Below are positions 10,111 through 44,835 of a stretch of 64,000 bases of DNA, piece after piece; positions within the stretch are counted from its first letter, which is position 1; every line of letters starts with the position of its first letter. The notes below the pieces were generated by a model. That model ran no database searches. It worked only from the letters and a program-made list of their open reading frames with translations, and was not told the origin of the DNA. A program made the translations under genes and the position numbers. Source of the stretch: Escherichia phage vB_Eco_F31; sequence record OP870147.1. The stretch is one strand, 5' to 3'.

Positions 10111-10139
10111 ATTATACTCATCTCTCAAGAGTTTGTATA
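10111..10139 (-). promoter_or_regulatory. early promoter / stem-loop cassette
   Basis: TATACA-N17-TATAAT; inverted repeat GAGAGA/TCTCTC brackets the -10; near-copy at 40648. Confidence 0.6.
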
Positions 10140-10379
10140 CTATTTTTTAAGCATGAAAAGTAAGTAATTTGTATCACGTGGAGTAATATCAACACCCATA
10201 TCAAAGATGCCTTTATAGATTGGGTATTTGTTTTCGGTTGTATCGAAGCTGAAACTATTTCCATCACAACTAACAGTAATAGCATCTGTTAAAATGTCAT
10301 ACTCAATCCTAACAATTGAATCCCCAATTTTAACGTCGAGGTGTTTTTTGAATTTGATAAAATCTAATTCTTGGGCCAT
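10140..10379 (-). CDS. hypothetical protein
   Basis: 79-aa ORF downstream of promoter cassette. Confidence 0.5.
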   Translation of the reverse strand: MAQELDFIKFKKHLDVKIGDSIVRIEYDILTDAITVSCDGNSFSFDTTENKYPIYKGIFDMGVDITPRDTNYLLFMLKK

Positions 10380-10410
10380 GATATTTTCCTCATTTTAAGA
10401 CGATAGGAAG

Positions 10411-10439
10411 ATAATAACATGTCTTCCTATCGTTGTACA
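10411..10439 (-). promoter_or_regulatory. early promoter / stem-loop cassette
   Basis: TGTACA-N17-TATTAT; perfect 9-bp repeat GATAGGAAG/CTTCCTATC brackets the -10. Confidence 0.6.
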
Positions 10440-10442
10440 TTA

Positions 10443-10655
10443 TTAACCGAACTTTTTAGCGCCTTTCCAGCCTTCGTACATAACTGCACAAGTCAGTAGT
10501 ACAGCGTGCTGGCATTCTTTGTATTTGTAAATCCAGAACCAGCGTAAAAAGTCTTCATCCTCGACACCATTGAGTTTCATGTTGGCAAAGAATTCGGCCC
10601 GTTCTTCACGAAGCTTTTGCGATAACATAGATTCAGGATTCATTTTATATTCCAT
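10443..10655 (-). CDS. hypothetical protein
   Basis: 70-aa ORF. Confidence 0.5.
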   Translation of the reverse strand: MEYKMNPESMLSQKLREERAEFFANMKLNGVEDEDFLRWFWIYKYKECQHAVLLTCAVMYEGWKGAKKFG

Positions 10656-10867
10656 GCCCCATTTTCATCGATGAACTTAATCCAGTCATTTACAGACCAT
10701 TTAGTTGTATCACCCTTTGGATTAACATTTAAAGTATATAATCCCTGCTTAAAAAGCATTCGTTTGATATTCATAATTTCCTCAACTGTAACGATAACAT
10801 TCGTTAGCTTTACGTTTGGCTTCAGTATGAGAAGTATTATAATCATACTCTTCTTTACTGTAAACAT
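10640..10867 (-). CDS. hypothetical protein
   Basis: 75-aa ORF. Confidence 0.45.
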   Translation of the reverse strand: MFTVKKSMIIILLILKPNVKLTNVIVTVEEIMNIKRMLFKQGLYTLNVNPKGDTTKWSVNDWIKFIDENGAWNIK

Positions 10868-11075
10868 CTTTTTTCAACTTACGAACTTCTTTGCGGAGTT
10901 GTCGATTCATTTCGTTCTTGACTTCAGAATCAACGCCTTTCATACGTTTCCATTTATCTGAGCGGAAGATGTTTTCAACCATGTCTTTGTGGCTAACACC
11001 GTCAGGAGCTTTACGCTTACCAAAATAGTCGTAATCGCGAACTTTCAAATCTTTACGACGATATGTTTTACCCAT
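10782..11075 (-). CDS. hypothetical basic protein
   Basis: Lys/Arg-rich; start placed at internal ATG (MGKTYRRKDLK). Confidence 0.45.
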   Translation of the reverse strand: MGKTYRRKDLKVRDYDYFGKRKAPDGVSHKDMVENIFRSDKWKRMKGVDSEVKNEMNRQLRKEVRKLKKDVYSKEEYDYNTSHTEAKRKANECYRYS

Positions 11076-11082
11076 AAGTACC

Positions 11083-11331
11083 TCAGAGGTTGATTGATAC
11101 AACGCGTTTGATAAAATTCACTTCACTTACTGAAAGGTCTTTAAGACCGATTGATTCTAAACGCTGATTAAGCGTCAACATCGGGATATAATCCCAATGA
11201 GTTTTATTTGCTTGATAAGTACGAACGCCATTAGCAATTTCAACATGCAAATCGGAAATGGTAACGAATACCGGTCGCTCGTCATTAACTTTAAGGGTTA
11301 GAACAACTTTCTTTGAATCTAAACTAATCAT
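11083..11331 (-). CDS. hypothetical protein
   Basis: 82-aa ORF. Confidence 0.5.
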   Translation of the reverse strand: MISLDSKKVVLTLKVNDERPVFVTISDLHVEIANGVRTYQANKTHWDYIPMLTLNQRLESIGLKDLSVSEVNFIKRVVSINL

Positions 11332-11510
11332 GGCTTAATTTCCTTCGCAATTGAACAGAAGATACTACGGTCACAAAGCATTTCACCAATTTCTGGATAT
11401 TTGATTGAACGGTACCAAACATCCAGGCTTGAAACTCTGGTTATCTGTACGGCATTACCATTGACAGAATAGTACTGGTCAACCTTAATTTCTTTATCTT
11501 CAATTGTCAT
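11328..11510 (-). CDS. hypothetical protein
   Basis: Start placed at ATG 11510 (MTIEDKEIKV...), SD GAGGAAAA, promoter upstream. Confidence 0.45.
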   Translation of the reverse strand: MTIEDKEIKVDQYYSVNGNAVQITRVSSLDVWYRSIKYPEIGEMLCDRSIFCSIAKEIKP

Positions 11511-11538
11511 TTTGTTTTCCTCTATAGCAGATGGTTTA

Positions 11539-11566
11539 ATCTTAACATATCTATCGAGGATGTAAA
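11539..11566 (-). promoter_or_regulatory. early promoter
   Basis: TTTACA-N16-TAAGAT upstream of SD and ATG 11510. Confidence 0.45.
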
Positions 11567-11660
11567 CTGTTTTATGAAAAATATTTTTGATTTGAGAGGG
11601 GCACAAGGAGATAGTGAAGTGAAGATTCCAATGGATTATATTAGAAATGAGATAAAGAAG

Positions 11661-11677
11661 ACCAGGCGGCACCTGGT
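11661..11677 (-). promoter_or_regulatory. GC-rich hairpin at nrdH stop
   Basis: ACCAGG-CGGCA-CCTGGT followed by T-rich tract on minus strand. Confidence 0.4.
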
Positions 11678-12000
11678 CAATCTTCTATGATATCAGAGTC
11701 ATATCCTAATGAAATCAAGGACTTTTTAAACTCTGCAATATTCTTTTGTTTCTTATCATTTAAAAATATGACAGGATAACGAATATTAAGTGAAGTGAAT
11801 CCTGCACGTTTAGCAAGAGATACGATTAAAGGACGGTCATATTCAATCTTACCATTATTAGTGAGGACTTTATAAAATGTATAAGGAGCATTGAGCTCCT
11901 TTAAAAGTTTTGTAACAGCATAACATCCTGGACAACGTCCTACTTCTTCAGGGATGCCATAGATTTCAATCTTGTTCTTTAAGTTCGAGTTTTGTTCCAC
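11677..12000 (-). CDS. nrdH: glutaredoxin-like NrdH
   Basis: CPGCYAV redox motif after KIEIYG; probable GTG start 12000 with SD AAGGAA; upstream part of track ORF is out-of-frame overlap. Confidence 0.7.
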   Translation of the reverse strand: MEQNSNLKNKIEIYGIPEEVGRCPGCYAVTKLLKELNAPYTFYKVLTNNGKIEYDRPLIVSLAKRAGFTSLNIRYPVIFLNDKKQKNIAEFKKSLISLGYDSDIIED

Positions 12001-12283
12001 GAGAAATAATTCCTTGGTAAGCCCAATAAGGAGGATTAACAGAATCCTCACCAGAGTTTTCTTCAGGAAAATAAACCTGGATAACAAATCCAGACTCATC
12101 AAAGGTAAAATAAACCGTAGGCAGTTCACCTAACAAATCGGCACGAGCGTTGATTTCTTCGAGGTCTTGTTCACGTCCAGCCCAAAAACTAGGATTTAGA
12201 TTACATTCGTAAAAATAATAGTCATTACCGAACATATCAAACCCCTTCCAACTCTCTACCACATACCGCTCAAAACTAATCAT
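11966..12283 (-). CDS. hypothetical protein
   Basis: 105-aa acidic ORF ending where the glutaredoxin domain begins. Confidence 0.5.
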   Translation of the reverse strand: MISFERYVVESWKGFDMFGNDYYFYECNLNPSFWAGREQDLEEINARADLLGELPTVYFTFDESGFVIQVYFPEENSGEDSVNPPYWAYQGIISRGTKLELKEQD

Positions 12284-12285
12284 AA

Positions 12286-13082: not shown

Positions 13083-14896
13083 TGGTGTTTAACCCTATGC
13101 ATGATTTCTTTATTTTTACCGAGATTAAATCCGCGTTCGTTCGGATTTCCCAAATAACCGCATGTTCTTCTTATGGTGTTCATCTTTTTAGGATCAGTTT
13201 CTCCGCAAACTGAACAAACAAATCCGTTTTCAGTAGGAGTCATTTCATGGGTACTTCCACATGTAAAACATTTATCTACTGGCATATTAACACCAAAATA
13301 ATCTAAATGTTGTGCAGCATAATCCCAGACGGCCTCAAGTCCCTTTAAATTGTTTTTCATATCTGGAAGTTCAACATAAGAAATGTGACCACCTGTCGCA
13401 ATGAAATGATATGGCGCTTCACGAGAAATCTTTTCAAACGGAGTAATATTTTCTTCTACTGAAACGTGGAAACTGTTAGTGTACCAGCCTTTATCGGTAA
13501 CATCCTTTACACTTCCATATTTTTCTGTATCGAGTTTACAGAAGCGATAACAAAGGTTTTCAGCAGGAGTCGAATATAAACTAAAAGCAAATCCAGTTCT
13601 TTCAGACCACTGTTTAAGATGAGCATTCATTTTAGTTAAAATTTCTTGCCCAATATCACGACCAACAAGAATATTCAATTCGTGAATACCAATGTATCCT
13701 AAAGACACTGAACTTCTACCGTTTTTAAATAACTCAATTATGTCGTCATCAGGTTTAAGACGAACCCCGAATGCACCTTCTTGGTAAAGAATAGGAGCAA
13801 CAGTCGCTTTAACTCCTTTTAAGGAACTAATTCTACACATCAAAGCTTCAAAACACAGGTCCATTCGTTCGTTAAATAGCTCAACAAATTTCTGTTCATT
13901 GAACTGTGTTCCAATATAAGAATCTAACGCAATACGAGGAAGATTCAGTGTTACAACACCAAGATTATTACGTCCATCAAGAATTTCATTACCAGTCGAA
14001 TCTTTCCATACGCTCAAGAAACTACGGCAACCCATTGGAGAAACTGGAACTGAAGAACCGGTAATAGCTTTATTATTCTTAACCGAAATAATGTCAGGAT
14101 ACATTCTTTTGCTTGCACATTCTAACGCAAGTTGTTTAATATCATAGTTTGGATCATCTTTATAAAGATTAACACCTTCTTCAACAAACATAACAAGTTT
14201 AGGAAAAATAGGAGTTATTCCATCACGACCAAGACCTTTAATGCGGTTTTTAAGAATTGCCTTCTGAATCATTCGTTCAGTCCAGTCAGTTCCCGTACCA
14301 AATGTAATTGTTACAAAAGGCGTTTGTCCGTTTGAACTAAAGAGAGTATTTACTTCGTATTCATAAGCTTGGAATGCGTCATAGACATCTTTTTCTGTTT
14401 TAGATTGAGCATAATTCAACGCATCAGCGATTTGCCATTTTTCTGCATCTTCAACATGTTTAGCGTATGTGCGTTTAACATAAGGAGAAAGAACTTTATC
14501 TACATTCGCAAATGTAGTTCCGCCATACTGGTGTGAAGCAACTTGTGCGGTAATTTGTGCCATAATTGCAGTAGCAACACCAATAGATTTAGGCGTTTCA
14601 ATTTGAGCATTGCCTAATTTAAATCCATTCTCAAGCATCCCCTTTAAATCGACTAAACAGCAATTGGTAAACGGAAGAGCAGGAGAATAATCAATATCAT
14701 GCATGTGAATGATTCCGCTTTCATGCGCATTCATAATAAAAGACGGGACCATATTTTTGGCAATGTGCTTAGACACAATACCAGCCATAAGGTCCCGTTG
14801 AGTTGGAAAAACACGAGAATCTTTATTAGCATTCTCGTTCAAAAGATCTTTATTAGTTTTATAAATTAATCCTTCAATTTCTTTTTCAATTTTCAT
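13079..14896 (-). CDS. nrdD: anaerobic ribonucleoside-triphosphate reductase NrdD
   Basis: 605 aa, C-terminal glycyl-radical motif RRTCGYLG and Cys-rich zinc site; uninterrupted (no intron). Confidence 0.95.
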   Translation of the reverse strand: MKIEKEIEGLIYKTNKDLLNENANKDSRVFPTQRDLMAGIVSKHIAKNMVPSFIMNAHESGIIHMHDIDYSPALPFTNCCLVDLKGMLENGFKLGNAQIETPKSIGVATAIMAQITAQVASHQYGGTTFANVDKVLSPYVKRTYAKHVEDAEKWQIADALNYAQSKTEKDVYDAFQAYEYEVNTLFSSNGQTPFVTITFGTGTDWTERMIQKAILKNRIKGLGRDGITPIFPKLVMFVEEGVNLYKDDPNYDIKQLALECASKRMYPDIISVKNNKAITGSSVPVSPMGCRSFLSVWKDSTGNEILDGRNNLGVVTLNLPRIALDSYIGTQFNEQKFVELFNERMDLCFEALMCRISSLKGVKATVAPILYQEGAFGVRLKPDDDIIELFKNGRSSVSLGYIGIHELNILVGRDIGQEILTKMNAHLKQWSERTGFAFSLYSTPAENLCYRFCKLDTEKYGSVKDVTDKGWYTNSFHVSVEENITPFEKISREAPYHFIATGGHISYVELPDMKNNLKGLEAVWDYAAQHLDYFGVNMPVDKCFTCGSTHEMTPTENGFVCSVCGETDPKKMNTIRRTCGYLGNPNERGFNLGKNKEIMHRVKHQ

Positions 14897-15366: not shown

Positions 15367-15371
15367 GATAA

Positions 15372-16048: not shown

Positions 16049-16077
16049 ATCATAACACGTTTCTTCGTCGTTGTAAA
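16049..16077 (-). promoter_or_regulatory. early promoter
   Basis: TTTACA-N17-TATGAT. Confidence 0.5.
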
Positions 16078-16127: not shown

Positions 16128-16484
16128 TTAACCCCGGAGTTTATTGAGCTCTTCATAATCAATCCAGGATTCTAGCCCTGACGGCAGGTCACATTCAATG
16201 TTCCACAGAAGCTCTTCAATGGCTTGCAGGCGATTATATTCTTCAACGGTAATGGTAACCATTGGTGCAACCGGTTCTGCCTTTTTAACCATCATGTCGT
16301 TCATCAGGACGTAAAGGTCATCACGAACGACAGTGTCGTTCCATCCCCATGATTTGGCTTCGTAAGCTAATGATGAAGGGAGCACATTTAAAACTTCAAT
16401 AATAGTTGGAGCATCAGGACCAAGTTCATTGGCACAAACTTCGTATACATCTTGGAAATCTTTAAGATTTAATGAATATGTCAT
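16128..16484 (-). CDS. hypothetical protein
   Basis: 118-aa ORF. Confidence 0.5.
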   Translation of the reverse strand: MTYSLNLKDFQDVYEVCANELGPDAPTIIEVLNVLPSSLAYEAKSWGWNDTVVRDDLYVLMNDMMVKKAEPVAPMVTITVEEYNRLQAIEELLWNIECDLPSGLESWIDYEELNKLRG

Positions 16485-16502
16485 TTAAAATTTTCTCGCA
16501 GG

Positions 16503-16799
16503 TTATTGTTCTACCCATGAACAAGAGACTTCAAAATCAGGACCACCGTATTCCCAGTGATATTCACCAACAGGAATCCAGTCACCGTGCTCGTTTTCTT
16601 CATAGTCCTCAGGCTCAAGGCCAACGAATCGCCATTGGACACCGATGATTCGATTACCCATCATTACTCGAAATTCGCCCCATGGATTATCGATAGCATA
16701 CTGAATATCGTTCTTGGCACGAGAGCACATTTCTTGATATAATAAAGCTTCTAATTCACCCTGGTCATAAGGGCCAGGGAAAGTTAAATCAATACTCAT
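16503..16799 (-). CDS. hypothetical protein
   Basis: 98-aa acidic ORF. Confidence 0.5.
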   Translation of the reverse strand: MSIDLTFPGPYDQGELEALLYQEMCSRAKNDIQYAIDNPWGEFRVMMGNRIIGVQWRFVGLEPEDYEENEHGDWIPVGEYHWEYGGPDFEVSCSWVEQ

Positions 16800-17465: not shown

Positions 17466-17770
17466 TATAATGTTCTCTCAAATTTGTGGAAGCATTTACG
17501 GCATTTCAATTTCAAGTTATCAGTTGTCCAGTTAACCAGTTGGACTTGGATAGTTCCACATTCCGGGCATGGATGTTTTGCTGCCGATTTGGCAGCATTT
17601 TCACGTCGTTCAACCATTTTCATTATTTCGTTCCATGCCGGAGGAACAAACTCTTCTTCACCGTGGATTTTATCTCGCTGAACAAATTCAATCTTTGAAC
17701 TATCGTCAATAAACTTAACCAAGCCATGATTAGTGCTCATATCAATATCCTCTAAAAGACGTAGTTTCAT
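17465..17770 (-). CDS. hypothetical zinc-ribbon protein
   Basis: CPECG...CRKC pair of CxxC motifs. Confidence 0.5.
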   Translation of the reverse strand: MKLRLLEDIDMSTNHGLVKFIDDSSKIEFVQRDKIHGEEEFVPPAWNEIMKMVERRENAAKSAAKHPCPECGTIQVQLVNWTTDNLKLKCRKCFHKFERTL

Positions 17771-18720
17771 TATAACACCTCAATGGCATTTCGTAAACCA
17801 TCCGCTTTCGCATTCAGAGCTTTTAACGATTTAGTTTGTTCTGCAATCTGGGCTTCGACTTCTTTCAGACGAGATTTGAGATATTCGCGTTCTTCTCTTA
17901 AGTTATCAACCTTTTCTGCTTTAGGCTCTTTAATAGGCTTAGGCTTATACTCGTTAGGGTTCTTCAACTTAATTTGAATGCGAGAACTGTATAACATTGA
18001 ACCATTATCTTCGGTTTCATCATACATTTCTACCACGTCCATGATTCTTAACATCATGCGAAGTTTATAAGACAGCGAACGAATGGTTTTATTGTGCTTC
18101 TTAATTTCTTCAGCTTTCATGGTGCCGAGATTACGTGAGTAATAATAAGGAACCTGAATATCAATTGATAATGATGCGGTACCATTACCGGTTGGTTTGA
18201 ACACTGCAGTAACCCAATCTTTAGCATGAACTGTATTTGTACGATCATCGCCGCCTGTGAATAATTTACGAGAATGTTTAAAAAGCATATTCACTTGGTT
18301 ATTGAATTCACAAGCAAATTTATCAGCAAATTTAGTTTCAGGAATGGTAGTTAACCAATCAGCCAAATGAGTCTTTTTAACATCATTAACAATAGTGAAT
18401 TCAACCAAATCGGTTTTAGATGTCACAGTTTTAATAAAGCTCGGCTTCATAAAGTTTTTAATGTTATCGCGAGCTACAGTAGAAGATAATAAACGAGAAC
18501 GTTTGAACCATTGAAGCAGTGTCCCTAATGAATGAGAATATGCATTTTGAGTATCTTTACAGATATGATTTTCTTGGCCTATGTATGTACCAAAATCTCG
18601 AAGAATACCACTTACTACATCTCGGTGTGGAACATCAAATCCTAGTGCACCAGAAGCACGTTGGGCATGAACGTTAGCGATAAGACCTGCAAAGTATTCA
18701 ATGTAATGTGAACGTGTCAT
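17770..18720 (-). CDS. hypothetical protein with C-terminal coiled coil
   Basis: 316 aa; heptad-like C-terminus; own promoter cassette upstream. Confidence 0.6.
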   Translation of the reverse strand: MTRSHYIEYFAGLIANVHAQRASGALGFDVPHRDVVSGILRDFGTYIGQENHICKDTQNAYSHSLGTLLQWFKRSRLLSSTVARDNIKNFMKPSFIKTVTSKTDLVEFTIVNDVKKTHLADWLTTIPETKFADKFACEFNNQVNMLFKHSRKLFTGGDDRTNTVHAKDWVTAVFKPTGNGTASLSIDIQVPYYYSRNLGTMKAEEIKKHNKTIRSLSYKLRMMLRIMDVVEMYDETEDNGSMLYSSRIQIKLKNPNEYKPKPIKEPKAEKVDNLREEREYLKSRLKEVEAQIAEQTKSLKALNAKADGLRNAIEVL

Positions 18721-18748: not shown

Positions 18749-18777
18749 ATTATACTCCAACCATCCTTGGTTGTAAA
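18749..18777 (-). promoter_or_regulatory. early promoter / stem-loop cassette
   Basis: TTTACA-N17-TATAAT with hairpin CAACCA-TCCT-TGGTTG in the spacer; 29-nt core identical to 19769 copy. Confidence 0.65.
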
Positions 18778-19768: not shown

Positions 19769-19797
19769 ATTATACTCCAACCATCCTTGGTTGTACA
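19769..19797 (-). promoter_or_regulatory. early promoter / stem-loop cassette
   Basis: TGTACA-N17-TATAAT; same core ttattatactccaaccatccttggttgta. Confidence 0.65.
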
Positions 19798-20793: not shown

Positions 20794-20828
20794 AACTATT
20801 TCCTCAGATTGAATTGGAACTCAAAACC

Positions 20829-20854
20829 ATTATAACCCGTCCTTGGGTAAAGCG
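20829..20854 (-). promoter_or_regulatory. candidate middle promoter
   Basis: CATAAACGCTTTA + 13 nt + TATAAT, same 13-mer as at 4435..4447. Confidence 0.4.
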
Positions 20855-20855
20855 T

Positions 20856-21383
20856 TTATGCGTGAACCGTCTTTAAACGTTCTTCAAATTTCCGAAGAGT
20901 ACTAATACGTTCTGCTTTCTGTTTTGTATAGTTTGCAATACGTTCTGAAGTGAGAGCGTATCGTTCGTTTACTGTTTCTTTCATGAAGTCAGGGATTTCA
21001 CGAGAAGCTTTAATTTCATCAAACTTATCGAGTACTGCCTGGTCTTCAGCAATTAAATTTTCGTACATCTCGATATCTTTCTTGATGAAGTCGATATCTT
21101 CCTGGGTTACTTTGGATAAACGAGATGCTTTATCCTTTTTGTACTGCTCGTTAGTTTCACGAGACCAGAATAATGTACGTTTTTTGTTAGTGTTTTTGTA
21201 GACTTCCACAATTCCAACTGAATCGATGATAACAATCCAATTCCAGCGAGATTTGAAAATCTGACCTCCGTCCACGGTAATCTCGTTACCATAAGCAACG
21301 TCATTAAAGAACTTGCTTTGTGCTTCAGATTTAAATTTACCGTCGTTATAATTTACCAGGTTGAAAATATCTTTAGCGTTCAT
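20856..21383 (-). CDS. hypothetical protein
   Basis: 175-aa ORF. Confidence 0.55.
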   Translation of the reverse strand: MNAKDIFNLVNYNDGKFKSEAQSKFFNDVAYGNEITVDGGQIFKSRWNWIVIIDSVGIVEVYKNTNKKRTLFWSRETNEQYKKDKASRLSKVTQEDIDFIKKDIEMYENLIAEDQAVLDKFDEIKASREIPDFMKETVNERYALTSERIANYTKQKAERISTLRKFEERLKTVHA

Positions 21384-21410
21384 GTTTTACCTCCAGTAGT
21401 TGATAGGTCT

Positions 21411-21438
21411 ATAATAACATAACCATAGACCTTGTAAA
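21411..21438 (-). promoter_or_regulatory. early promoter / stem-loop cassette
   Basis: TTTACA-N16-TATTAT; AGGTCT/AGACCT repeat brackets the -10. Confidence 0.55.
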
Positions 21439-21441: not shown

Positions 21442-21729
21442 CTAAAAGAAACTTTTTTCGGTATTTTTTCCACTGAACCAAACAGACTTCGGGATTTTTT
21501 GTAATTTTTCAGATTTAAGTTTCTCTTCTTGTTCTTTCTTATATACACCCTTGTCGTACTGGAGCATCTCTATGGCATTCTTTTGCAAACGATCTAAGGT
21601 AATTAAGGCTTTAGTTTTTCCTTTCAAGGAAGAGTCCTGGCGAACCTCCTCACTATATTGCATCGTAGAACTAACCATACGATGAGCATACAGTTCGACT
21701 GCGGCTTTAATTTTTTGCATAAAATCCAT
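21442..21729 (-). CDS. hypothetical protein
   Basis: 95-aa ORF. Confidence 0.5.
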   Translation of the reverse strand: MDFMQKIKAAVELYAHRMVSSTMQYSEEVRQDSSLKGKTKALITLDRLQKNAIEMLQYDKGVYKKEQEEKLKSEKLQKIPKSVWFSGKNTEKSFF

Positions 21730-21866
21730 AACATATCCTCTTTGATTTGTACATCATTATTTTAAATATTTCTATGCCCTCAGTAGGTTCCTGGTGTCCT
21801 TCTTTGAGTTAAGCCATATGATTATTCATCTTTATGGCTTTTGTTACCTCAGAACTTCCTATAAGC

Positions 21867-22885: not shown

Positions 22886-22913
22886 ATAATAACATATCCT
22901 AAAAGCATGTACA
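22886..22913 (-). promoter_or_regulatory. early promoter
   Basis: TGTACA-N16-TATTAT upstream of ATPase gene. Confidence 0.5.
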
Positions 22914-25445: not shown

Positions 25446-25580
25446 TTTACCATACTCGTTTCAATAAGATTCACTATGCCGTTTACCATGTTATAAGTAA
25501 ACATCGGATAATTGTATTGTACTACAACATAAGCGATAAGCAAAAGTTTCATTTTGTTCTCCGTTTGTTTTGATAGGACT

Positions 25581-25609
25581 ACTATAACATAGTCCTACCA
25601 AGATGTAAA
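25581..25609 (-). promoter_or_regulatory. early promoter / stem-loop cassette
   Basis: TTTACA-N17-TATAGT; TAGGACT/AGTCCTA brackets the -10. Confidence 0.6.
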
Positions 25610-26030: not shown

Positions 26031-26058
26031 ACTATAACACAACCTGAGGAGAAGTAAA
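26031..26058 (-). promoter_or_regulatory. early promoter inside SD-sequestering inverted repeat
   Basis: TTTACT-N16-TATAGT; repeat CTCCTC (26010..26015) / GAGGAG (26046..26051) pairs the SD of ATG 26003. Confidence 0.55.
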
Positions 26059-26070
26059 CTGATAGATGCC

Positions 26071-26099
26071 AAAAAAAGCCCCAACCATAAGGAAGGGGC
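26071..26099 (-). terminator. rho-independent terminator (GCCCC...GGGGC cassette) after rI
   Basis: Minus strand GCCCCTTCC-TTAT-GGTTGGGGC followed by T7; 8 nt after stop at 26107. Confidence 0.7.
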
Positions 26100-26106
26100 T
26101 AGTAAA

Positions 26107-27435: not shown

Positions 27436-27659
27436 TTAGGTTCACCTTCTTTAACGAAATCTGGGTAAGGGTAAAATCCTGAGTAAAACCCTTCACCTTT
27501 ATGATTGCTACAACCTTTGTTCGAACAGTAACACCAATAATCAAAATCACAAGCCATTTCGTCATTGCATAAAGCAAAAACTACAGGCCATTCGCATTTT
27601 TCGCATTTAGCACCTGTAAGAATTTTTGTTTGACTCATAGCCATGTCACCTTTAAGCAA
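27432..27659 (-). CDS. hypothetical Cys-rich protein
   Basis: Several Cys pairs (CEKCEW, CSNKGC). Confidence 0.5.
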   Translation of the reverse strand: MLKGDMAMSQTKILTGAKCEKCEWPVVFALCNDEMACDFDYWCYCSNKGCSNHKGEGFYSGFYPYPDFVKEGEPK

Positions 27660-27862
27660 TATTCTTCTACATGTTGTTTACGGCCTTTCTTATCAATAAA
27701 GGTATATTCAACGAATGTTCCGATGTAGTCTTTATCTACATCATGTGGACTATTAATTGGACATTTAGTACGACAAATGCGTTCCCATTGACGAATAATT
27801 ACTGCCTTATTCTTTGGATCGTATGGATGTGGATAATGTGTATTCATAATAACGGTTCCCAA
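27635..27862 (-). CDS. hypothetical protein
   Basis: 75-aa ORF. Confidence 0.5.
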   Translation of the reverse strand: MGTVIMNTHYPHPYDPKNKAVIIRQWERICRTKCPINSPHDVDKDYIGTFVEYTFIDKKGRKQHVEEYCLKVTWL

Positions 27863-29657: not shown

Positions 29658-29685
29658 TTTGATTTCTCCTCTAGTTGACAGGTCT

Positions 29686-29713
29686 ATAGTAACACAACTA
29701 GAGGAGAAGTAAA
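29686..29713 (-). promoter_or_regulatory. early promoter inside 13-bp SD-sequestering hairpin (regB)
   Basis: TTTACT-N16-TACTAT; perfect repeat TCTCCTCTAGTTG (29665..29677) / CAACTAGAGGAGA (29695..29707); one arm contains regB SD. Confidence 0.6.
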
Positions 29714-31693: not shown

Positions 31694-31801
31694 CCCATTA
31701 CCGCACTTGGGCTCGACCTTATTACAGGTTGGAAAAGGTACATCACTCAGAGGACTCGACGTTCATGAGGAGAGGTTGCGTTTCCCTTTATTAGGCAAGA
31801 A

Positions 31802-32131
31802 TTATACTCTAGGCTTTTGAGCTTGTTTGGTATTGGATTCCCATGCGGCTTTGGTAATTTTGTTAGCGGCATAACCAAAGGCATTAGATAGAACACCTTT
31901 AGAGTTGAATACATCCAATCCAATAAGTACACCGGCTGTGTTAAATTTAGGAGCAAAGTACGCATTAGTTTTAGAAAGAGCTTTTTTCAATTCAGGGTCT
32001 TGAACCAAGCCATCAAAAACGCCTTTACTATTTACTTTGTATGTTACTTTGGGATTTTTACCTTCTTCGATAGCAGCTTTCTGTTCCGCAGATAATGTAA
32101 CTTCAGTGATAAACTCCTGATATGTTTTCAT
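31802..32131 (-). CDS. internal protein (capsid-targeted)
   Basis: N-terminal capsid targeting sequence MKTYQEFITE. Confidence 0.75.
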   Translation of the reverse strand: MKTYQEFITEVTLSAEQKAAIEEGKNPKVTYKVNSKGVFDGLVQDPELKKALSKTNAYFAPKFNTAGVLIGLDVFNSKGVLSNAFGYAANKITKAAWESNTKQAQKPRV

Positions 32132-32471: not shown

Positions 32472-32535
32472 TTTTTGTTTCCTTGTTTGTTTTGATAGAG
32501 TAATTATACCATATTAATACTTAAGCGTAAACAAT

Positions 32536-33216: not shown

Positions 33217-33243
33217 AATTTCCTCCAAGTAGTTGATAGATGT

Positions 33244-33272
33244 ATAGTATCAAAGTCCTTGGAGGAAGTAAA
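33244..33272 (-). promoter_or_regulatory. early promoter inside SD-sequestering hairpin (denV)
   Basis: TTTACT-N17-TACTAT; 9-bp repeat TCCTCCAAG/CTTGGAGGA; one arm is denV SD. Confidence 0.6.
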
Positions 33273-34075: not shown

Positions 34076-34534
34076 TTATAGGAGTGTAGTGAGCACCTTA
34101 TATAATGATTTGCCCATTACATATTCCCATTGAGAAGGTTTAATTAAAGCGAATGCATCAAATTCAGGAATCTGTCGTCCGTCTGGGAATGTATGATAGG
34201 AATTACAAACACTGTTTCTGAATTGCTCGTGCTCTACAGGGATGGTATATAGGAACAGATGAATATTCTTATTGTCTGAGTAATGATGTTCACCTAGGTC
34301 TTTCAGGAAGGCAGGGTCGTATTGTGTAAACCCAGTTTCTTCTTCGCATTCACGAATAGCGGCTTCAATAGGAGATTCGCCAGGTTCGACACGGCCTTTA
34401 GGAATATCCCACCTATGAGCTAATGCACCTTTAGAACGAGAACCAGTTACACGCCCCATGAATAATTCTTTATCTTCGGTAAGGAAAATAATACCGGCTG
34501 ATAGTTCTTTCACTTTATTTTTCTTACTCATCAT
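34076..34534 (-). CDS. nudE: Nudix hydrolase NudE
   Basis: Nudix box GRVEPGESPIEAAIRECEEETG; downstream of e as in T4. Confidence 0.9.
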   Translation of the reverse strand: MMSKKNKVKELSAGIIFLTEDKELFMGRVTGSRSKGALAHRWDIPKGRVEPGESPIEAAIRECEEETGFTQYDPAFLKDLGEHHYSDNKNIHLFLYTIPVEHEQFRNSVCNSYHTFPDGRQIPEFDAFALIKPSQWEYVMGKSLYKVLTTLL

Positions 34535-34775
34535 CTCGGTCCCATGATTTGGCCATTAATTCGGACATAAATTCTTCAATGCGCGTTTCTTTAGATGGAC
34601 TTTCACTATTAGAGACCGCAAGTTTGTAATCTGCAATAGGACAGAACATATCAAGGTCCATATTAAGGTCGTCTTTGATTTTTTCTTCTGACACATCTTT
34701 ATCGTATGTGTACAGATAACTATCACATGATTCTGATTTAATGTAAATTGCTATACTCATCTCAAATTCCTGCAT
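34524..34775 (-). CDS. hypothetical protein
   Basis: 83-aa acidic ORF; probable start at ATG overlapping upstream stop. Confidence 0.5.
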   Translation of the reverse strand: MQEFEMSIAIYIKSESCDSYLYTYDKDVSEEKIKDDLNMDLDMFCPIADYKLAVSNSESPSKETRIEEFMSELMAKSWDRDDE

Positions 34776-36241: not shown

Positions 36242-36269
36242 AATATTCTCCTCATGTTTTAATAGGACT

Positions 36270-36298
36270 ACTATAATATAGCCCTATCAGTTTGTACA
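36270..36298 (-). promoter_or_regulatory. early promoter / stem-loop cassette
   Basis: TGTACA-N17-TATAGT; TAGGACT/AGCCCTA brackets the -10. Confidence 0.55.
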
Positions 36299-36299: not shown

Positions 36300-36500
36300 T
36301 TATTTTGACATTTCTTCGATGTCACGACGATACCCATCACGAACTTCACGAAGAGCTTCAAGGCCACACATAGGCTCGATACCAGTAATGTGAACTTGAT
36401 TAATCTGATACTCTACATCTTCTAACTGAGCGAAAACATAACGACGTTCTGCTGCACAACCAGGTTTAGCTTTACCGAAACGTTTATTCAAAGTAGTCAT
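36300..36500 (-). CDS. hypothetical protein
   Basis: Start placed at ATG 36500 (MTTLNKRF...). Confidence 0.5.
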   Translation of the reverse strand: MTTLNKRFGKAKPGCAAERRYVFAQLEDVEYQINQVHITGIEPMCGLEALREVRDGYRRDIEEMSK

Positions 36501-36538
36501 TTTTATATCTCCATTCACTCATTTGTTTTGATAGGTCT

Positions 36539-36567
36539 ATAGTATCAACAACTACAGACCTTGTAAA
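36539..36567 (-). promoter_or_regulatory. early promoter / stem-loop cassette
   Basis: TTTACA-N17-TACTAT; AGGTCT/AGACCT brackets the -10. Confidence 0.6.
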
Positions 36568-37817: not shown

Positions 37818-37833
37818 TTGTTTTGATAGGACT

Positions 37834-37862
37834 ACTATAACATAGCCCTATCTTGTTGTAAA
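37834..37862 (-). promoter_or_regulatory. early promoter / stem-loop cassette
   Basis: TTTACA-N17-TATAGT; GATAGGACT/AGCCCTATC brackets the -10. Confidence 0.6.
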
Positions 37863-38662: not shown

Positions 38663-39018
38663 TTTCTACATTCCTTAATAAAGTTTTCGATTGTTTCATT
38701 TTCACGTTTAGCTAGGAGTTCATTATAACTAATCATTTGAGAAGCGTAAACCTTTTTATTTTTCTTGTTATGGTTTATAAAATCGTAGTAAAAATAGACT
38801 ACAGTACAAAAGGATGCGATAGATGCAAAGGCTTGGGTATACCGTAAGTCCTGCCATTGGTCTGTGAATCCACCAGTGTTACCTATAAATCCTAACACAA
38901 CTCCGTCAATAAGAAATCCAACTAATCCAAAGGCAAATCCCATGCCAATACTCATAATAAAAATTAGAATGTTCTCACCAAGAGAAGGCCATACGGTTAA
39001 GAGTTGAGGCTTTTGCAT
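38659..39018 (-). CDS. hypothetical membrane protein, C-terminal ENFIKECR module
   Basis: Hydrophobic helices; C-terminus IENFIKECRK. Confidence 0.5.
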   Translation of the reverse strand: MQKPQLLTVWPSLGENILIFIMSIGMGFAFGLVGFLIDGVVLGFIGNTGGFTDQWQDLRYTQAFASIASFCTVVYFYYDFINHNKKNKKVYASQMISYNELLAKRENETIENFIKECRK

Positions 39019-40606: not shown

Positions 40607-40647
40607 ATTATTACCTTTCAATTGGTGGTTTATTATCCAACGAGAGC

Positions 40648-40676
40648 ATTATACTCTGCTCTCAAGAGTTTGTAAA
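40648..40676 (-). promoter_or_regulatory. early promoter / stem-loop cassette
   Basis: TTTACA-N17-TATAAT; repeat GAGAGC/GCTCTC brackets the -10; near-copy of 10111 cassette with compensatory changes. Confidence 0.6.
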
Positions 40677-40931: not shown

Positions 40932-40960
40932 TACTATAACATAAACTTACTTAGATGTAA
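40932..40960 (-). promoter_or_regulatory. early promoter
   Basis: TTTACA-N17-TATAGT upstream of ATG 40904. Confidence 0.55.
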
Positions 40961-41145
40961 ATTATTTCAACGTCACCTTTAGCTGCTTTATAACCTTCAG
41001 CCCAAGATACAACAGAGTTTTTATCTGAGGATTCAAATTCAGGCATTGGACTTTCACCAATATTCACACAGTATGTTTCTTCATTTTCATCGAACCAAAT
41101 AATTAAAGTAGTCATTTTGTTTACTCCTCTGTTGTTGATAAACCC

Positions 41146-41174
41146 ATAGTATCACCATCCTTGGTGCTTGTACA
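41146..41174 (-). promoter_or_regulatory. early promoter / stem-loop cassette
   Basis: TGTACA-N17-TACTAT with hairpin CACCA-TCCT-TGGTG in spacer (diverged copy of 18749 type). Confidence 0.5.
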
Positions 41175-41183
41175 TCATTATTT

Positions 41184-41489: not shown

Positions 41490-41517
41490 AATATTCTCCT
41501 CTGTGGTTGATAAGTCT

Positions 41518-41545
41518 ATAGTATCATGTCCTTAGAAGAAGTAAA
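41518..41545 (-). promoter_or_regulatory. early promoter
   Basis: TTTACT-N16-TACTAT upstream of ATG 41489. Confidence 0.5.
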
Positions 41546-41579
41546 CATCTTTATGAAATATTTTTATGCCCTAGATGCC

Positions 41580-41606
41580 AAAAAGCCCCAACCATAAGGA
41601 AGGGGC
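41580..41606 (-). terminator. rho-independent terminator (GCCCC...GGGGC cassette)
   Basis: Same hairpin as 26071 copy followed by T5; 6 nt after stop at 41613. Confidence 0.7.
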
Positions 41607-41612
41607 ATTCTA

Positions 41613-42077: not shown

Positions 42078-42122
42078 GTTGCTTTTCCTAAATTAATTAA
42101 CTTATCTATTTATTATTATGCC

Positions 42123-42149
42123 AAAAAGCCCCAACCTTTCGGAAGGGGC
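42123..42149 (-). terminator. rho-independent terminator (GCCCC...GGGGC cassette, GAAA loop)
   Basis: Minus strand GCCCCTTCC-GAAA-GGTTGGGGC followed by T5; closes the tRNA/RNA locus. Confidence 0.7.
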
Positions 42150-42201
42150 TATGCCTTGCGGCAACCTTGTCGGGGTTCCACCTGCTAAGGCAAGTGTTTG
42201 T

Positions 42202-42293
42202 ACGAAACGCCGGGATTTGAACCCGGTTATTAAGCAGTTGACGCTACTCAATATTTTTAAAAGGCCATATCTCGACCATATCCGAACGTTCCG
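42202..42293 (-). ncRNA. tRNA-like element (acceptor stem plus canonical T-arm, no canonical D or anticodon arm)
   Basis: Minus strand 5' CGGAACG pairs with CGTTTCG 3'; T-arm CCGGG-TTCAAAT-CCCGG at 42210..42226; no CCA encoded. Confidence 0.3.
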
Positions 42294-42637
42294 TCAAAAA
42301 CGCTACTCGGCTTACGGCAAAGATATTTCCTCGAATCGATAATTCGGTGCGCCGTTTCTGCTGTGATGTAAGGGGATATTAAAAAATCGTAAAGATTTAT
42401 TAAGACCAGTCCTTACTCAGGGAACATCAGTCCGACGACTTACCGGTAGCGACCCGGCTTCTTATTTTGGCATATCATCAATTTGCTCTCGACGCCGACG
42501 CCATAGATTAATAGCTTCATTAACACATTCGGCGTTTGGTATATGACGGCAATAATATAATGATTCGCGTTTCTGGAACCGATGTTGCAACGGGATTTCG
42601 TTTAAAAGGTCTTTACGGTCAAAGTATTCAAAACTAG

Positions 42638-42805
42638 TTAACCCGGAACGGTTTTAAGAAACTTCCAATGTCCGAATTCATTTTTAAAATAAACATAATC
42701 AGCATGTTGATATAATGAATTAATTAACCTATCGGAAATAACTGTTTCACGTTCGTTAAAATAAAACGTTAAATCATGAACTACCAGATACACATTGCCT
42801 TTCAT
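42638..42805 (-). CDS. hypothetical protein
   Basis: Start placed at ATG 42805 (MKGNVYLVVHDL...), SD GAGGAAAA, just downstream of tRNA-Arg. Confidence 0.45.
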   Translation of the reverse strand: MKGNVYLVVHDLTFYFNERETVISDRLINSLYQHADYVYFKNEFGHWKFLKTVPG

Positions 42806-42823
42806 ATTTTCCTCACTTGAAGT

Positions 42824-42900
<77 letters not shown>

Positions 42901-42903
42901 GAT

Positions 42904-42978
42904 TGGTGACCCTGGCTGGTTTCGATCCAGCTACCTATCAGTTATGAGCTGACAGCTCTCCCATTGAGCTACAGGGCC
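42904..42978 (-). tRNA. tRNA with CAU anticodon (Met, or Ile2 if lysidine-modified)
   Basis: 75 nt with CCA; acceptor GGCCCTG/CAGGGTC, anticodon loop CTCATAA, T-arm GCTGG/CCAGC; 3 nt from tRNA-Arg. Confidence 0.85.
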
Positions 42979-43040
42979 TTAATAACTTTCTATTATGAAA
43001 GGCACTTTAGAGCACCTTTGGTAATAGAGGGTATGAATTA

Positions 43041-43067
43041 ATAATAACACATAATTCTTAAAGCAAA
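43041..43067 (-). promoter_or_regulatory. MotA-dependent middle promoter for the tRNA cluster
   Basis: Perfect MotA box TTTGCTTTA + 12 nt + TATTAT, ~63 nt upstream of tRNA 5' end. Confidence 0.55.
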
Positions 43068-43573
43068 TCAATCATTTTAACAGTCGGCAAAACGATTTCT
43101 TCTTCAATATAAGCAAATTCAACACATTCAACTACACGCAAGAAATCATAATCATAATATTCAGAAGCATGGCCAAGAATATCAATGAGACCTTCTGATA
43201 CTAAATATCCATTCTCATGGAACAGGTCAAATATACGTGATTCATCTTCTTCAGATTTATTACCGAGGTCGACTTCAATATCAAAGACCTTTTTAATGAA
43301 TTCTGGATAAAGCTGGTCTGAGAACAGTCCTTCAACCAAGTATTCATAGATTAAAAGCGAGCAATCACTGAATGGTGTATTACCACAGTAACGTTCAGCT
43401 TTAGTGCTAGAATGACGACTCTTAAATTTCTTCAAGAGATATTTAAACTGTTGGAGCTCATGCTCTTCTACACCAAATAATGTTTTGGTTTTATAGTTAT
43501 CGCCGTCATTTTCCCAAGTAGTGACATCAATTACGTAACCTTTAGGAATTGTACTGCCTAAACAAATATTCAT
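43058..43573 (-). CDS. hypothetical protein
   Basis: 171-aa acidic ORF. Confidence 0.55.
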   Translation of the reverse strand: MNICLGSTIPKGYVIDVTTWENDGDNYKTKTLFGVEEHELQQFKYLLKKFKSRHSSTKAERYCGNTPFSDCSLLIYEYLVEGLFSDQLYPEFIKKVFDIEVDLGNKSEEDESRIFDLFHENGYLVSEGLIDILGHASEYYDYDFLRVVECVEFAYIEEEIVLPTVKMIDLL

Positions 43574-43577
43574 TTAC

Positions 43578-43868
43578 TCACCGTACCATATTAATGTAAT
43601 TATATTCAATGCAACGTAATTTCAAAGGATTCTTGAAAATATCATATTCAAGAGGGCCTTTTTCTGTTTCAATAAAGAAATCAAAGTTAACTGTGTTAAA
43701 TTTATCGTCTTCACAGAGTAATTTAACCTGTGAAGACGAACGGTCGATATAAACCTTTTCAACCTCAAAGTTAGTCAGAATACCGTAGTCATCGACTAGT
43801 GCTTTAGCTGCACGTCGGTCGCTTTCATATCCATTCTCAATGGACGATACTTTAGCATAAAGAATCAT
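43578..43868 (-). CDS. hypothetical protein
   Basis: 96-aa ORF. Confidence 0.5.
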   Translation of the reverse strand: MILYAKVSSIENGYESDRRAAKALVDDYGILTNFEVEKVYIDRSSSQVKLLCEDDKFNTVNFDFFIETEKGPLEYDIFKNPLKLRCIEYNYINMVR

Positions 43869-44245
43869 GAATGTTCCACCATTTCAAAGGTATGAGCATC
43901 AACAATATGATACCAGTCAAAATTTTCTTCTGCGTTTTTATAAATTTCGCGAAGAGCTTCAACAGTTTTTCCTGTAGCAACAAGGTCGTCAATACCACCA
44001 AGAGGATAACAGTCATAACCAGCAAACAGAAGAAAATTAATAGTTTCTGTAGGTTCTGGATGCAGAACACCGTTATCGTCTACCACTTCAAAGAAAGTGT
44101 AAGAAGGAGTACAAGTTTTAATCCAAGCCCATGCTTGAGCCGCTGAATCAAATGGTCTGCGTATCAAACGACAATCAGGGTCTTTAGAAGGATTTGCTTC
44201 AAAATCAGCATATACATGATATTTCATTTTACTCACCTTTTGCAA
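43865..44245 (-). CDS. hypothetical protein
   Basis: 126-aa ORF. Confidence 0.5.
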   Translation of the reverse strand: MQKVSKMKYHVYADFEANPSKDPDCRLIRRPFDSAAQAWAWIKTCTPSYTFFEVVDDNGVLHPEPTETINFLLFAGYDCYPLGGIDDLVATGKTVEALREIYKNAEENFDWYHIVDAHTFEMVEHS

Positions 44246-44435
44246 TTTTATCCATAACGATAGCGATTAAGCTGATTAGAAATGCTACTACCAATGAGAT
44301 AGAGTTTTCAGTTGTTGTCAGTAGTCCACAAATGAATCCTACAAACATCGAAAAACTAAAAGCCATTGAAGCAATTACTACAGCAACATTACGAATCAGT
44401 TCAGCGCGTTTCATTTTATTTCTCCATTTACTCAT
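44229..44435 (-). CDS. hypothetical membrane protein
   Basis: 68 aa, two hydrophobic helices. Confidence 0.5.
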   Translation of the reverse strand: MSKWRNKMKRAELIRNVAVVIASMAFSFSMFVGFICGLLTTTENSISLVVAFLISLIAIVMDKIAKGE

Positions 44436-44451
44436 TTGTTTTGATAGGACT

Positions 44452-44480
44452 ACTATAACATAGTCCTATCTGCATGTAAA
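44452..44480 (-). promoter_or_regulatory. early promoter / stem-loop cassette
   Basis: TTTACA-N17-TATAGT; perfect 9-bp repeat GATAGGACT/AGTCCTATC brackets the -10. Confidence 0.65.
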
Positions 44481-44484
44481 CTAC

Positions 44485-44772
44485 TTACAGAAGAGTTTTT
44501 GCAATAATTTTAAGCTGAGCTACAGAAATATGCTTAGCTTTAAACAGTGCAGTCTCTTCAGCCGGAGAGATAACAATAGTAGCGCCATCTTTCTTAGCGG
44601 ACCACCCATCCCCTAAGTAAACAGTACCTTTTACTTCTTCGCCGTCAACCAGACTAATCATTGGTTTACCCTCGCGTCCTTTATTTGCTTTAATAACTTC
44701 GGAAGTAAGGGTTGCTTCGGTCAGAGTAGAAACGTTAGCAAAAGGTGATATAAATTCTTTATAGGATTTCAT
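44485..44772 (-). CDS. internal protein (capsid-targeted)
   Basis: CTS-like MKSYKEFIS...LTE. Confidence 0.65.
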   Translation of the reverse strand: MKSYKEFISPFANVSTLTEATLTSEVIKANKGREGKPMISLVDGEEVKGTVYLGDGWSAKKDGATIVISPAEETALFKAKHISVAQLKIIAKTLL

Positions 44773-44806
44773 TTTATTTCCTTGAGGTTGTTTATTTGAT
44801 AGGACG

Positions 44807-44835
44807 ATAGTATCACACCAACATCCTTATGTAAA
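44807..44835 (-). promoter_or_regulatory. early promoter
   Basis: TTTACA-N17-TACTAT upstream of internal-protein gene. Confidence 0.55.

Follow-up and report, generated by a model that had tools for sequence, protein, structure and literature searches.

The 64,000-nucleotide (nt) stretch of the Escherichia phage vB_Eco_F31 genome analysed here (OP870147.1; the whole stretch is called the window) was assigned by Megablast to the RB69 group (Mosigvirus) of T4-type coliphages, with 97–98% identity to APCEc01, AlbertHofmann and JK45 and 96.7% to RB69. According to the RB69 annotation, the minus strand carries over 1–48 kb the genes 43, regA, 62, 44, 45, 46, 47, 55, nrdG/D, 49, nrdC, tk and vs, followed by regB, denV, e, two tRNA genes, ipI, 57, 1, 3 and 2, and the plus-strand baseplate genes start at about 48.3 kb. 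The part between 10.1 and 44.8 kb, from gene 55 to ipI/57B, is the hyperplastic early region, where gene junctions are repeatedly occupied by a cassette that combines an early-type promoter with, in many copies, a stem-loop. Promoter-early stem-loop (PeSL) cassettes were defined in RB49/phi1 (Arbiol et al., 2010; PMC2839356) and extended to T4/PST and nt-1/KVP40, with the form TTTACW-N17-TAYWAT and stems of the type AGNA...TCNT, and were expected in all T4-like phages (Comeau, Arbiol & Krisch, 2014; PMC4122927). We consider it probable that, in this RB69-like T4-type phage, 27 sites in the window are early promoters of the sigma-70/UP-element type, packaged as PeSL-type cassettes.

A preliminary, sequence-only reading of the window had noted TTTACA, TGTACA or TTTACT boxes on the minus strand, 16 or 17 nt ahead of a -10 box, and had placed about 20 such cassettes between 10111 and 44835. 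The motif is real and the range is exact. A loose pattern (T[TG]TAC-N16/17-TANNNT) has 34 matches on the minus strand and 12 on the plus strand, and about 25 of the minus-strand matches share the longer consensus aaa.a-GTTTACA-N16/17-(tgt)TATAGT/TACTAT-ag.CCTATCAAaacaaa..GGAG..ATG. A two-block matrix (an A-rich plus GTTTACA block and a tgtTATAGT block, spacer 16–18, cut-off at least 14 bits) identifies 27 sites, all of them on the minus strand, compared with a mean of 0.45 sites (maximum 4) in 40 dinucleotide shuffles. All 27 cores lie within 10111–44835, with none in the replication block (1–9 kb) or the late block (>45 kb); 24 of them occupy 24 of the 104 gene junctions, and three are inside open reading frames (ORFs). 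The cassettes are also recovered by an unbiased repeat finder, as families D2–D6, D8–D10 and D12–D16. Generic sigma-70 scans showed no enrichment (75 sites vs 69.6 expected, and 74 vs 62.2), and thus only the T4-specific consensus is informative. The proposed match to the T4 early promoters is borne out by the same matrix. In the homologous 49-kb segment of T4, its 21 sites are all on the gene strand, and in the corresponding region of RB69, its sites coincide with 25 of the 26 predictions of early promoters made by Nolan et al. (2006; PMC1524935). Promoter features are absent from the annotation of the T4 records NC_000866 and AF158101. As in the T4/RB69 early promoters described by Nolan et al. 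(2006), a GTTTAC -35 box, an A-rich UP region and a C-rich stretch at -3 to -1 are present.

Over 60–90 nt, the cassettes follow a common order: the stop codon of the upstream gene within an A-rich stretch, GTTTACA, a spacer of 16–17 nt, (TGT)TATAGT, CCTATCAA, an A-rich leader, GGAG and ATG. The stop codon lies 0–15 nt from the -35 box in most cassettes. An annotated start with a GGAG/GAGGA-type Shine–Dalgarno sequence (SD) is located 35–130 nt downstream at 22 of the 27 sites, and the remainder are inside or overlap ORFs; for three downstream genes, the start codons used were 44414, 37805 and 22847. From sigma-70 geometry, +1 should be the A of CCTATCAA. This start region, CCTATCAA(A/C) at positions -3 to +5, is conserved in RB69-like and T4 early promoters even where a complementary arm is lacking, and may itself be an element of the promoter or of the initial transcript.

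Stable inverted repeats (-8 kcal/mol or lower) are found in about 17 of the 27 cassettes, and about seven promoters, up to roughly one-third of the total, have no hairpin. The earlier count of about 20 was therefore low for promoters and high for strong hairpins, and the four inverted repeats then cited, at 10402–10431, 25574–25597, 37825–37852 and 44443–44470, were all found (at 10400–10433, 25570–25601, 37825–37852 and 44443–44470, respectively). Folded from the spacer to +32, the cassettes have a mean minimum free energy of -10.3 kcal/mol, compared with -5.7 kcal/mol for shuffles that keep the -10 box (standard deviation of the set mean 0.46), and 41% of the cassettes reach -12 kcal/mol or lower, against 9% of random genome windows. 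In chimeras that join the spacer of one cassette to the -10 box and downstream part of another, the mean is -7.1 kcal/mol and the native value was reached in 0 of 5000 permutations, which indicates that the two arms co-vary within each cassette.

Three geometries can be distinguished (cassettes are designated by the upper coordinate of their core; Table 1). In class I, with 10–11 cassettes including 44480, 37862, 36298, 25609, 36567, 21438, 10439, 40676 and 10139, the spacer holds the 5' arm, the -10 box forms the loop, and the 3' arm begins with the final base of the -10 box and ends between -1 and +5; the arms differ among members (GATAGGACT/AGTCCTATC, AGGTCT/AGACCT, ACGATAGGAAGA/TCTTCCTATCGT, GAGAGC/GCTCTC). 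In class II (33272 before denV, 29713 before regB, 26058, 11566 and 41545), the 5' arm directly follows the -35 box and the 3' arm is the SD of the next gene. Class III (41174, 18777 and 19797) has a 5-bp stem with an AGGA loop, entirely within the spacer. Across the cassettes, the arms are 6 to about 30 nt apart. Hairpin statistics in the homologous T4 segment are alike (mean -10.4 kcal/mol, 38% at -12 kcal/mol or lower), and classes I and II are both present there. Hairpins around the -10 box were also observed in two minus-strand intergenic regions of middle-promoter type, with a MotA-box-like GCTTTA and TATAAT, at 9185–9245 (ATAGGTCT/AGACCTAT, z-score -2.6) and 4405–4450 (GATGTGGT/ACCACATC, z-score -4.9), similar to the promoter-middle 'PmSL' variants of nt-1 (Comeau, Arbiol & Krisch, 2014); a third such region, 20795–20857, has no hairpin.

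The pairing has been maintained while the sequences that form it have changed. Gene-anchored searches for orthologous cassettes yielded 127 unique sequences from eight loci, 104 of which have a helix of at least 5 bp that links the spacer with position -9 or beyond, formed by 74 distinct 5' arms and with 4–6 pair types at positions -6 to -4. For regB, the leaders were compared by per-sequence folds and arm strings, as a MAFFT alignment misplaced the SD. Of 10 distinct lineages, with RegB identities of 56–98%, 9 retain the anti-SD helix (z-scores -3.2 to -6.7), which takes at least four different sequences, with cores that include CTAGTTG/CAACTAG, CTTGACTG/CAGTTAAG, CTTTATG/CATAAAG and TGTAAG/CTTACA. 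Similarly, the denV helix is TCCTCCAAG/CTTGGAGGA in the window and TCTCCTGTAG/CTACAGGAGA in T4, and e.6 orthologues have four unrelated class I arm pairs. The nrdC.8 cassette is class I in RB69-like phages and class II, with different arms, in T4-like phages and a third lineage, and a hairpin is kept throughout despite the class switch. Within the window, the paralogues 10139 and 40676 share 90% identity over 62 nt, and a compensatory pair distinguishes their arms (GAGAGA/TCTCTC vs GAGAGC/GCTCTC). In IMG/VR, the GATAGGACT-type arm was found at only 5 loci, too few for covariation. The retention of pairing through the turnover of arm sequences implies selection on pairing and not on the arm sequence.

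Folding is stronger on the sense than on the antisense strand (-11.1 vs -9.6 kcal/mol, and -14.9 vs -12.5 kcal/mol for strong hairpins; Wilcoxon 5e-7 to ~1e-7), with 185 G.U pairs in the sense and 118 in the antisense orientation. The corresponding genome background is -7.2 vs -6.6 kcal/mol and 1112 vs 931 G.U pairs. Because the asymmetry exceeds this compositional background, a role in RNA on the coding strand is favoured, for which the asymmetry is only suggestive. Since the 5' arm lies upstream of the proposed start site of its own cassette, the hairpin should be confined to read-through RNA begun at a promoter farther upstream. The predicted accessibility of the SD is 0.31 in read-through RNA and 0.57 in own transcripts, and a gain of at least 0.4 occurs in 6 of 22 cassettes, compared with 7 of 82 control junctions. 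For class II and 19797, the predicted probability that the SD is unpaired is 0.00–0.07 in read-through RNA and 0.29–0.67 in own transcripts; the respective values are 0.00 and 0.38 for denV, 0.00 and 0.61 for regB, 0.01 and 0.67 for the gp55.6 homologue (11566), and 0.01 and 0.65 for 19797, a class III cassette that also hides its SD.

It is possible, if somewhat short of probable, that the hairpins embedded in T-even promoters, T4 included, are not terminators and make the promoter spacer a 'transcript-origin filter'. In class II (regB, denV, T4 nrdC.8, the gp55.6 homologue and others), the spacer arm would act as an anti-SD that closes the next gene to ribosomes on read-through RNA, and probably shields its GGAG from RegB as well; the SD would be exposed only on RNA begun at the gene's own promoter. 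In class I, the hairpin would end at about +3, where it just clears the expected 30S footprint, and would most likely be an intercistronic RNA element, serving as a 3'-end or processing barrier or as an attenuator. As DNA, the sequence common to the cassettes may provide patches of homology at gene boundaries for inserting, deleting or replacing single genes between related phages.

The association of the cassettes with modular gene shuffling, suggested in the sequence-only reading, is supported by alignment to six RB69-like genomes (RB69, APCEc01, JK45, EP02SG, LNA2 and JS09). The alignments gave 39 distinct breakpoints. Cassette zones contain 14 of them (6.5% expected; p = 7e-8), and for eight, the 5' edge of a -35 box is no more than 10 nt away (1.2% expected; p = 1.6e-8). 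Breakpoints occur at 11 of 24 cassette junctions and 12 of 80 other junctions (p = 0.003); when only the hyperplastic region is considered, the latter fraction becomes 12 of 58 (p = 0.02). The gene at 36300–36518 lies between cassettes 36567 and 36298, and in RB69, EP02SG and LNA2 the gene is absent and replaced by one cassette, a chimera with the UP/-35 part like 36567 and the spacer, -10 box, hairpin and leader like 36298. Further events begin or end at cassettes 22913, 29713, 32531, 41545, 44480 and 44835. Recombination within the cassettes may account for this coincidence.

Two other differences among these genomes were observed. A 282-bp segment at 16501–16784 (gene 16503–16799) is absent from RB69, EP02SG and JS09, with flanks that overlap by 34 nt at the junction; because there is no promoter cassette, this insertion or deletion arose by another route. 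In JK45, nrdD has a 1049-bp insertion, an intron annotated with an I-TevII-type homing endonuclease (at 14356–14361 in the window; JK45 segment 14386–15156), and the nrdD of OP870147.1 (13079–14896) is uninterrupted. A second type of short homology also adjoins several breakpoints. This is a gene start of about 30 nt, ATGAAAACATATCAGGAGTTTATC (MKTYQEFI...), shared by six scattered small minus-strand genes with start codons at 32131, 32471, 32796, 33556, 42077 and 44775. Several genes of this neighbourhood are annotated as internal head proteins in RB69, and we take the shared start to resemble the capsid-targeting leader of such proteins.

Several points weigh against these interpretations. 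The matrix test is partly circular, with 21 of the 27 sites used for training and six found de novo outside the training set, and both promoter activity and +1 are assigned by analogy, from T4 promoter homology and sigma-70 geometry. Many of the sequences behind the strand and G.U asymmetries are related, and part of the effect comes from composition. The SD appears hidden in only 5–6 cassettes, and an RNA role for class I is a guess. Breakpoints common to several genomes are included among the 39, which are thus not independent, and because stop codons lie 0–15 nt from the -35 box, selection for intact genes, and not crossovers in cassettes, could explain those at the -35 edge. The deletion in JK45 joins promoter fragments by microhomology and not by cassette homology, and the breakpoints at 14356, 15402, 16501–16784 and 27443–27854 are away from any cassette. 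Finally, one RB49 stem-loop cut lacZ expression as much as rrnB T1 (Arbiol et al., 2010).

This last result belongs to the original reading of PeSLs, in which the stem-loops are terminators or attenuators for polymerase arriving from upstream and the cassette is an insulating terminator–promoter unit. The reporter assay cannot tell termination from effects on translation or RNA stability. The hairpins are intergenic, as this reading would have it, and a canonical terminator stands directly upstream of two cassettes, 26058 and 41545. That terminator was found at 26066–26102 on the minus strand as GCCCCUUCC-UUAU-GGUUGGGGC followed by U7 (-15.8 kcal/mol), and is present as GCCCCTTCC-TTAT-GGTTGGGGC plus a T-run in three minus-strand copies (26066–26102, 41575–41606 and 42118–42149; family D17). 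The genuine terminators of OP870147.1, with their G+C-rich stem and U7, differ from the embedded hairpins, which have neither a U-tract nor any place among the terminator-like sites of two scans over 10000–49000; the sequences that follow them are A-rich (AAAACAAAT, ATCAAAACA, GTTGGATAA) or, in one further tail, AATCAAAAT. In addition, class II helices have internal loops of 20–30 nt and a 3' end in the SD. The missing U-tract rules out canonical intrinsic terminators and makes the label 'terminator' doubtful, and we regard the insulating-unit reading as not very likely.

The inverted repeats could instead act in DNA: as cruciforms or single-strand hairpins, they might be targets that recombination proteins (e.g. 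endonuclease VII) cut or bind, or might modulate promoter opening, which would make the cassettes recombination hot spots. The concentration of breakpoints at the cassettes would suit this, as would the constant position of the repeat around the -10 box, two middle-type promoters included. We think it unlikely, given that the resolvable crossover is at the -35 box and not in the hairpin, that the long class II loops are unfavourable for cruciform extrusion, and that G.U pairs and better sense folding are unexpected for a structure on both DNA strands. That the hairpins have no function, as relics of cassette copying or by-products of the partly palindromic -10 box (CTATAG), would be compatible with the several cassettes that are recent paralogues sharing 25–60 nt and with the promoters that lack a hairpin; it is very unlikely in view of the chimera permutations, by which chance palindromes are rejected, and of the pairing that survives sequence turnover in lineages with only 56–70% protein identity. 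It is hardly credible that the repeats are operators at which a dimeric regulator binds DNA to switch off early promoters. How T4 early promoters are shut off is 'not completely understood', a repressor would sit at the -10 box, which the repeat overlaps, and AGGA...TCCT recurs in many cassettes. The recurrent TCCT is, however, part of the start region CCTATCAA and is present even without a partner arm, and the 74 arm sequences with compensatory changes, the variable arm spacing and the wholly changed arms of orthologous promoters led us to reject a protein operator, for which the arms are too variable.

All sequence-level features of PeSLs are present in the cassettes, namely the AT-rich part with an upstream stop, the -35/-10 boxes, the stem-loop, the SD with ATG, the hyperplastic clustering and the association with insertions and deletions. 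The likeness to PeSLs of RB49-type phages put forward in the sequence-only reading therefore stands for these features, and needs to be widened, as the resemblance to T4/PST is as great as that to RB49 and T4 has the same structures. With the T4/PST cassettes (Comeau, Arbiol & Krisch, 2014), those of the window share the promoter consensus, the stem type (AGNA...TCNT, here AGGA...TCCT), an AT-rich 5' part, an SD/ATG 3' part and a hyperplastic location beside insertions and deletions; degraded 'half' copies, as in T4/PST and nt-1/KVP40, also occur (31798–31834). The legend for PST puts the stems 'just upstream' of the promoter, whereas in the window, and in our own scan of T4, most stems are inside the promoter, with the 5' arm in the spacer and the 3' arm after the -10 box or in the SD. 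RB69-type phages were outside the analysis of Comeau, Arbiol & Krisch (2014). With the RB49/phi1 cassettes (Arbiol et al., 2010), the composite layout, the commonest stem position ('between -35 and -10 or overlapping the -10') and G-T pairs in stems are shared, and the gene at 36300–36518 parallels RB49 ORF192, an ORF between two cassettes with one chimeric cassette in the sister phage. RB49 differs in its TTGACA-type -35 boxes and polyG/polyC stems, compared with the TTTACA box and stems of mixed composition (-9 to -21 kcal/mol) in the window. Terminator activity, promoter activity and mini-circles were shown by experiment for RB49.

Structures that sequester the ribosome-binding site are known for T4 e, soc, 49 and I-TevI (Uzan & Miller, 2010; PMC3014915), where, as predicted for class II, long transcripts are closed and promoter-proximal transcripts are open. 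In those genes, the internal promoter is late and separates early from late expression. In class II, the internal promoter appears to be of the early sigma-70 type, not a late (gp55) promoter, and its own spacer would be the anti-SD; an SD that is paired in RNA from upstream and free in the proximal transcript is predicted for class II and 19797 only. The SD-hiding helix is not mentioned by Durand (2006), a text search of Nolan et al. (2006) for stem-loops or inverted repeats gave 0 matches, and a literature search for T4 5'- and 3'-end maps returned nothing usable.

Table 1. Promoter cassettes and adjoining features on the minus strand of the window.
Feature	Position	Strand	Hairpin and remarks
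Core TTTACA-17-TACTAT before internal-protein-like gene (ATG 44772)	44807..44835	-	Class I hairpin 44801-44827, -10.7 kcal/mol
Core TTTACA-17-TATAGT (44452-44480) with class I hairpin (44443-44470)	44443..44480	-	GATAGGACTAU/GUAGUCCUAUC, -16.6 kcal/mol, z -6.5
trna.4 homologue downstream of 44480 (ATG 44414)		-	
Core TTTACT-16-TACTAT (41518-41545)	41497..41545	-	Class II helix 41497-41539 to SD GAGGAG, -8.9 kcal/mol
Canonical terminator copy just upstream of 41545	41575..41606	-	
Core TGTACA-17-TACTAT	41146..41174	-	Class III, spacer-only hairpin CACCA-AGGA-TGGTG, 41153-41166
Core TTTACA-17-TATAGT	40933..40961	-	No significant hairpin
Core TTTACA-17-TATAAT (40648-40676) before e.6	40642..40676	-	Class I GAGAGC/GCTCTC, -14 kcal/mol; family D16
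Core TTTACG-17-TATAAT inside ORF	38722..38750	-	No strong hairpin
Core (37834-37862) with class I hairpin (37825-37852)	37825..37862	-	GATAGGGCTAT/GTAGTCCTATC, one G.U pair, -16.1 kcal/mol
Core TTTACA-17-TACTAT (36539-36567)	36533..36567	-	Class I AGGTCTGTAG/CTATAGACCT, -15.2 kcal/mol; upstream flank of insertion/deletion gene 36300-36518
Core TGTACA-17-TATAGT (36270-36298)	36260..36298	-	Class I hairpin 36260-36289, -16.8 kcal/mol; downstream flank of insertion/deletion gene 36300-36518
Core TTTACA-17-GATAGT, weaker -10, at start of ORF 34524-34775	34719..34747	-	Breakpoint at 34757
Core TTTACT-17-TACTAT (33244-33272) before denV	33221..33272	-	Class II TCCTCCAAG/CTTGGAGGA, predicted to hide SD, -18.1 kcal/mol
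Core TTTACG-17-TATAAT before internal-protein gene	32503..32531	-	No strong hairpin; right end of 728-bp segment absent from JK45
Degenerate cassette, -35 decayed to CAAACA, TATAAT kept	31798..31834	-	Family D14; left end of JK45 deletion inside its -10
Core TTTACT-16-TACTAT (29686-29713) before regB	29665..29713	-	Class II TCTCCTCTAGTTG/CAACTAGAGGAGA, -21.6 kcal/mol, z -4.7
Core TTTACT-16-TATAGT	26031..26058	-	Class II TCTCCTC/GAGGAGA, -12.4 kcal/mol; terminator 26066-26102 just upstream
Core (25581-25609) with class I hairpin (25570-25601)	25570..25609	-	-18.0 kcal/mol
Core TGTACA-16-TATTAT	22886..22913	-	Weak hairpin only; left breakpoint (22907) of gene replacement vs RB69
Core TGTACA-17-TATGGA, poor -10	21725..21753	-	Within 169-bp segment differing from RB69
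Core TTTACA-16-TATTAT (21411-21438) before nrdC.8	21405..21438	-	Class I AGGTCTATGG/TTATAGACCT, -13.3 kcal/mol
Core TGTACA-17-TATAAT	19769..19797	-	Class III, spacer hairpin AACCA-AGGA-TGGTT
Core TTTACA-17-TATAAT	18749..18777	-	Class III, spacer hairpin; paralogue of 19797, family D10
Core TTTACG-17-TATAAT overlapping a gene's end	17769..17797	-	No strong hairpin
Intragenic core TTTACA-17-TATGAT	16049..16077	-	Conserved in T4 (segment position 16452); Pe:48639 of Nolan et al.
Core TTTACA-16-TAAGAT (11539-11566) before gp55.6 homologue	11518..11566	-	Class II TCCTCGATAG/CTATAGAGGA, -8.5 kcal/mol
Intragenic core TTTACA-17-TATAAT (10836-10864)	10825..10864	-	Weak class I hairpin; conserved in T4 (segment position 10261)
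Core TGTACA-17-TATTAT (10411-10439) with class I hairpin (10400-10433)	10400..10439	-	ACGATAGGAAGA/TCTTCCTATCGT, about -16 to -18 kcal/mol
Core TATACA-17-TATAAT (10111-10139)	10105..10139	-	Class I GAGAGA/TCTCTC, -8.9 kcal/mol; family D16

Two further features of the window lie apart from the promoter cassettes. A gap of 560 nt free of ORFs (42078–42637, minus strand) is located just upstream of the tRNA-Met and tRNA-Arg genes (42824–42978), and its counterpart in T4 encodes the stable RNAs rnaC and rnaD; in Rfam, nothing in 42078–42637 reached the gathering score, and the two tRNAs were the sole matches. On the plus strand, at the junction between the end of the baseplate gene 8 homologue and gene 9, 57199–57845 contains a perfect 347-bp tandem duplication, with copies at 57199–57498 and 57546–57845 of 300 nt each that are 100% identical. 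Because a 1301-nt stretch here maps to only 954 nt in the closest relatives, the duplication is either private to OP870147.1 or an assembly artefact.

The early promoters of RB69 (2006) and the PeSL concept (2010, 2014) are already known. Possibly new are the distinct hairpin geometries, their compensatory conservation from RB69-like phages to T4 and beyond, the lack of terminator tails and, in the class II subset, a promoter spacer that may double as an anti-SD. The 27 sites offer a map of the early transcription units for vB_Eco_F31 and many therapeutic relatives. RB69-like Mosigviruses would be a fourth lineage with promoter/stem-loop cassettes at the seams where genes are gained, lost or replaced, including a clean case of cassette-gene-cassette against a chimeric cassette, and these seams look like natural, self-expressing insertion points for phage engineering. 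If the hairpins do filter transcripts by origin, they would tie synthesis to the 2–3 min life of each early promoter and would add to early gene control, in a phage that is a classic model, a layer supported by covariation and so far undescribed.

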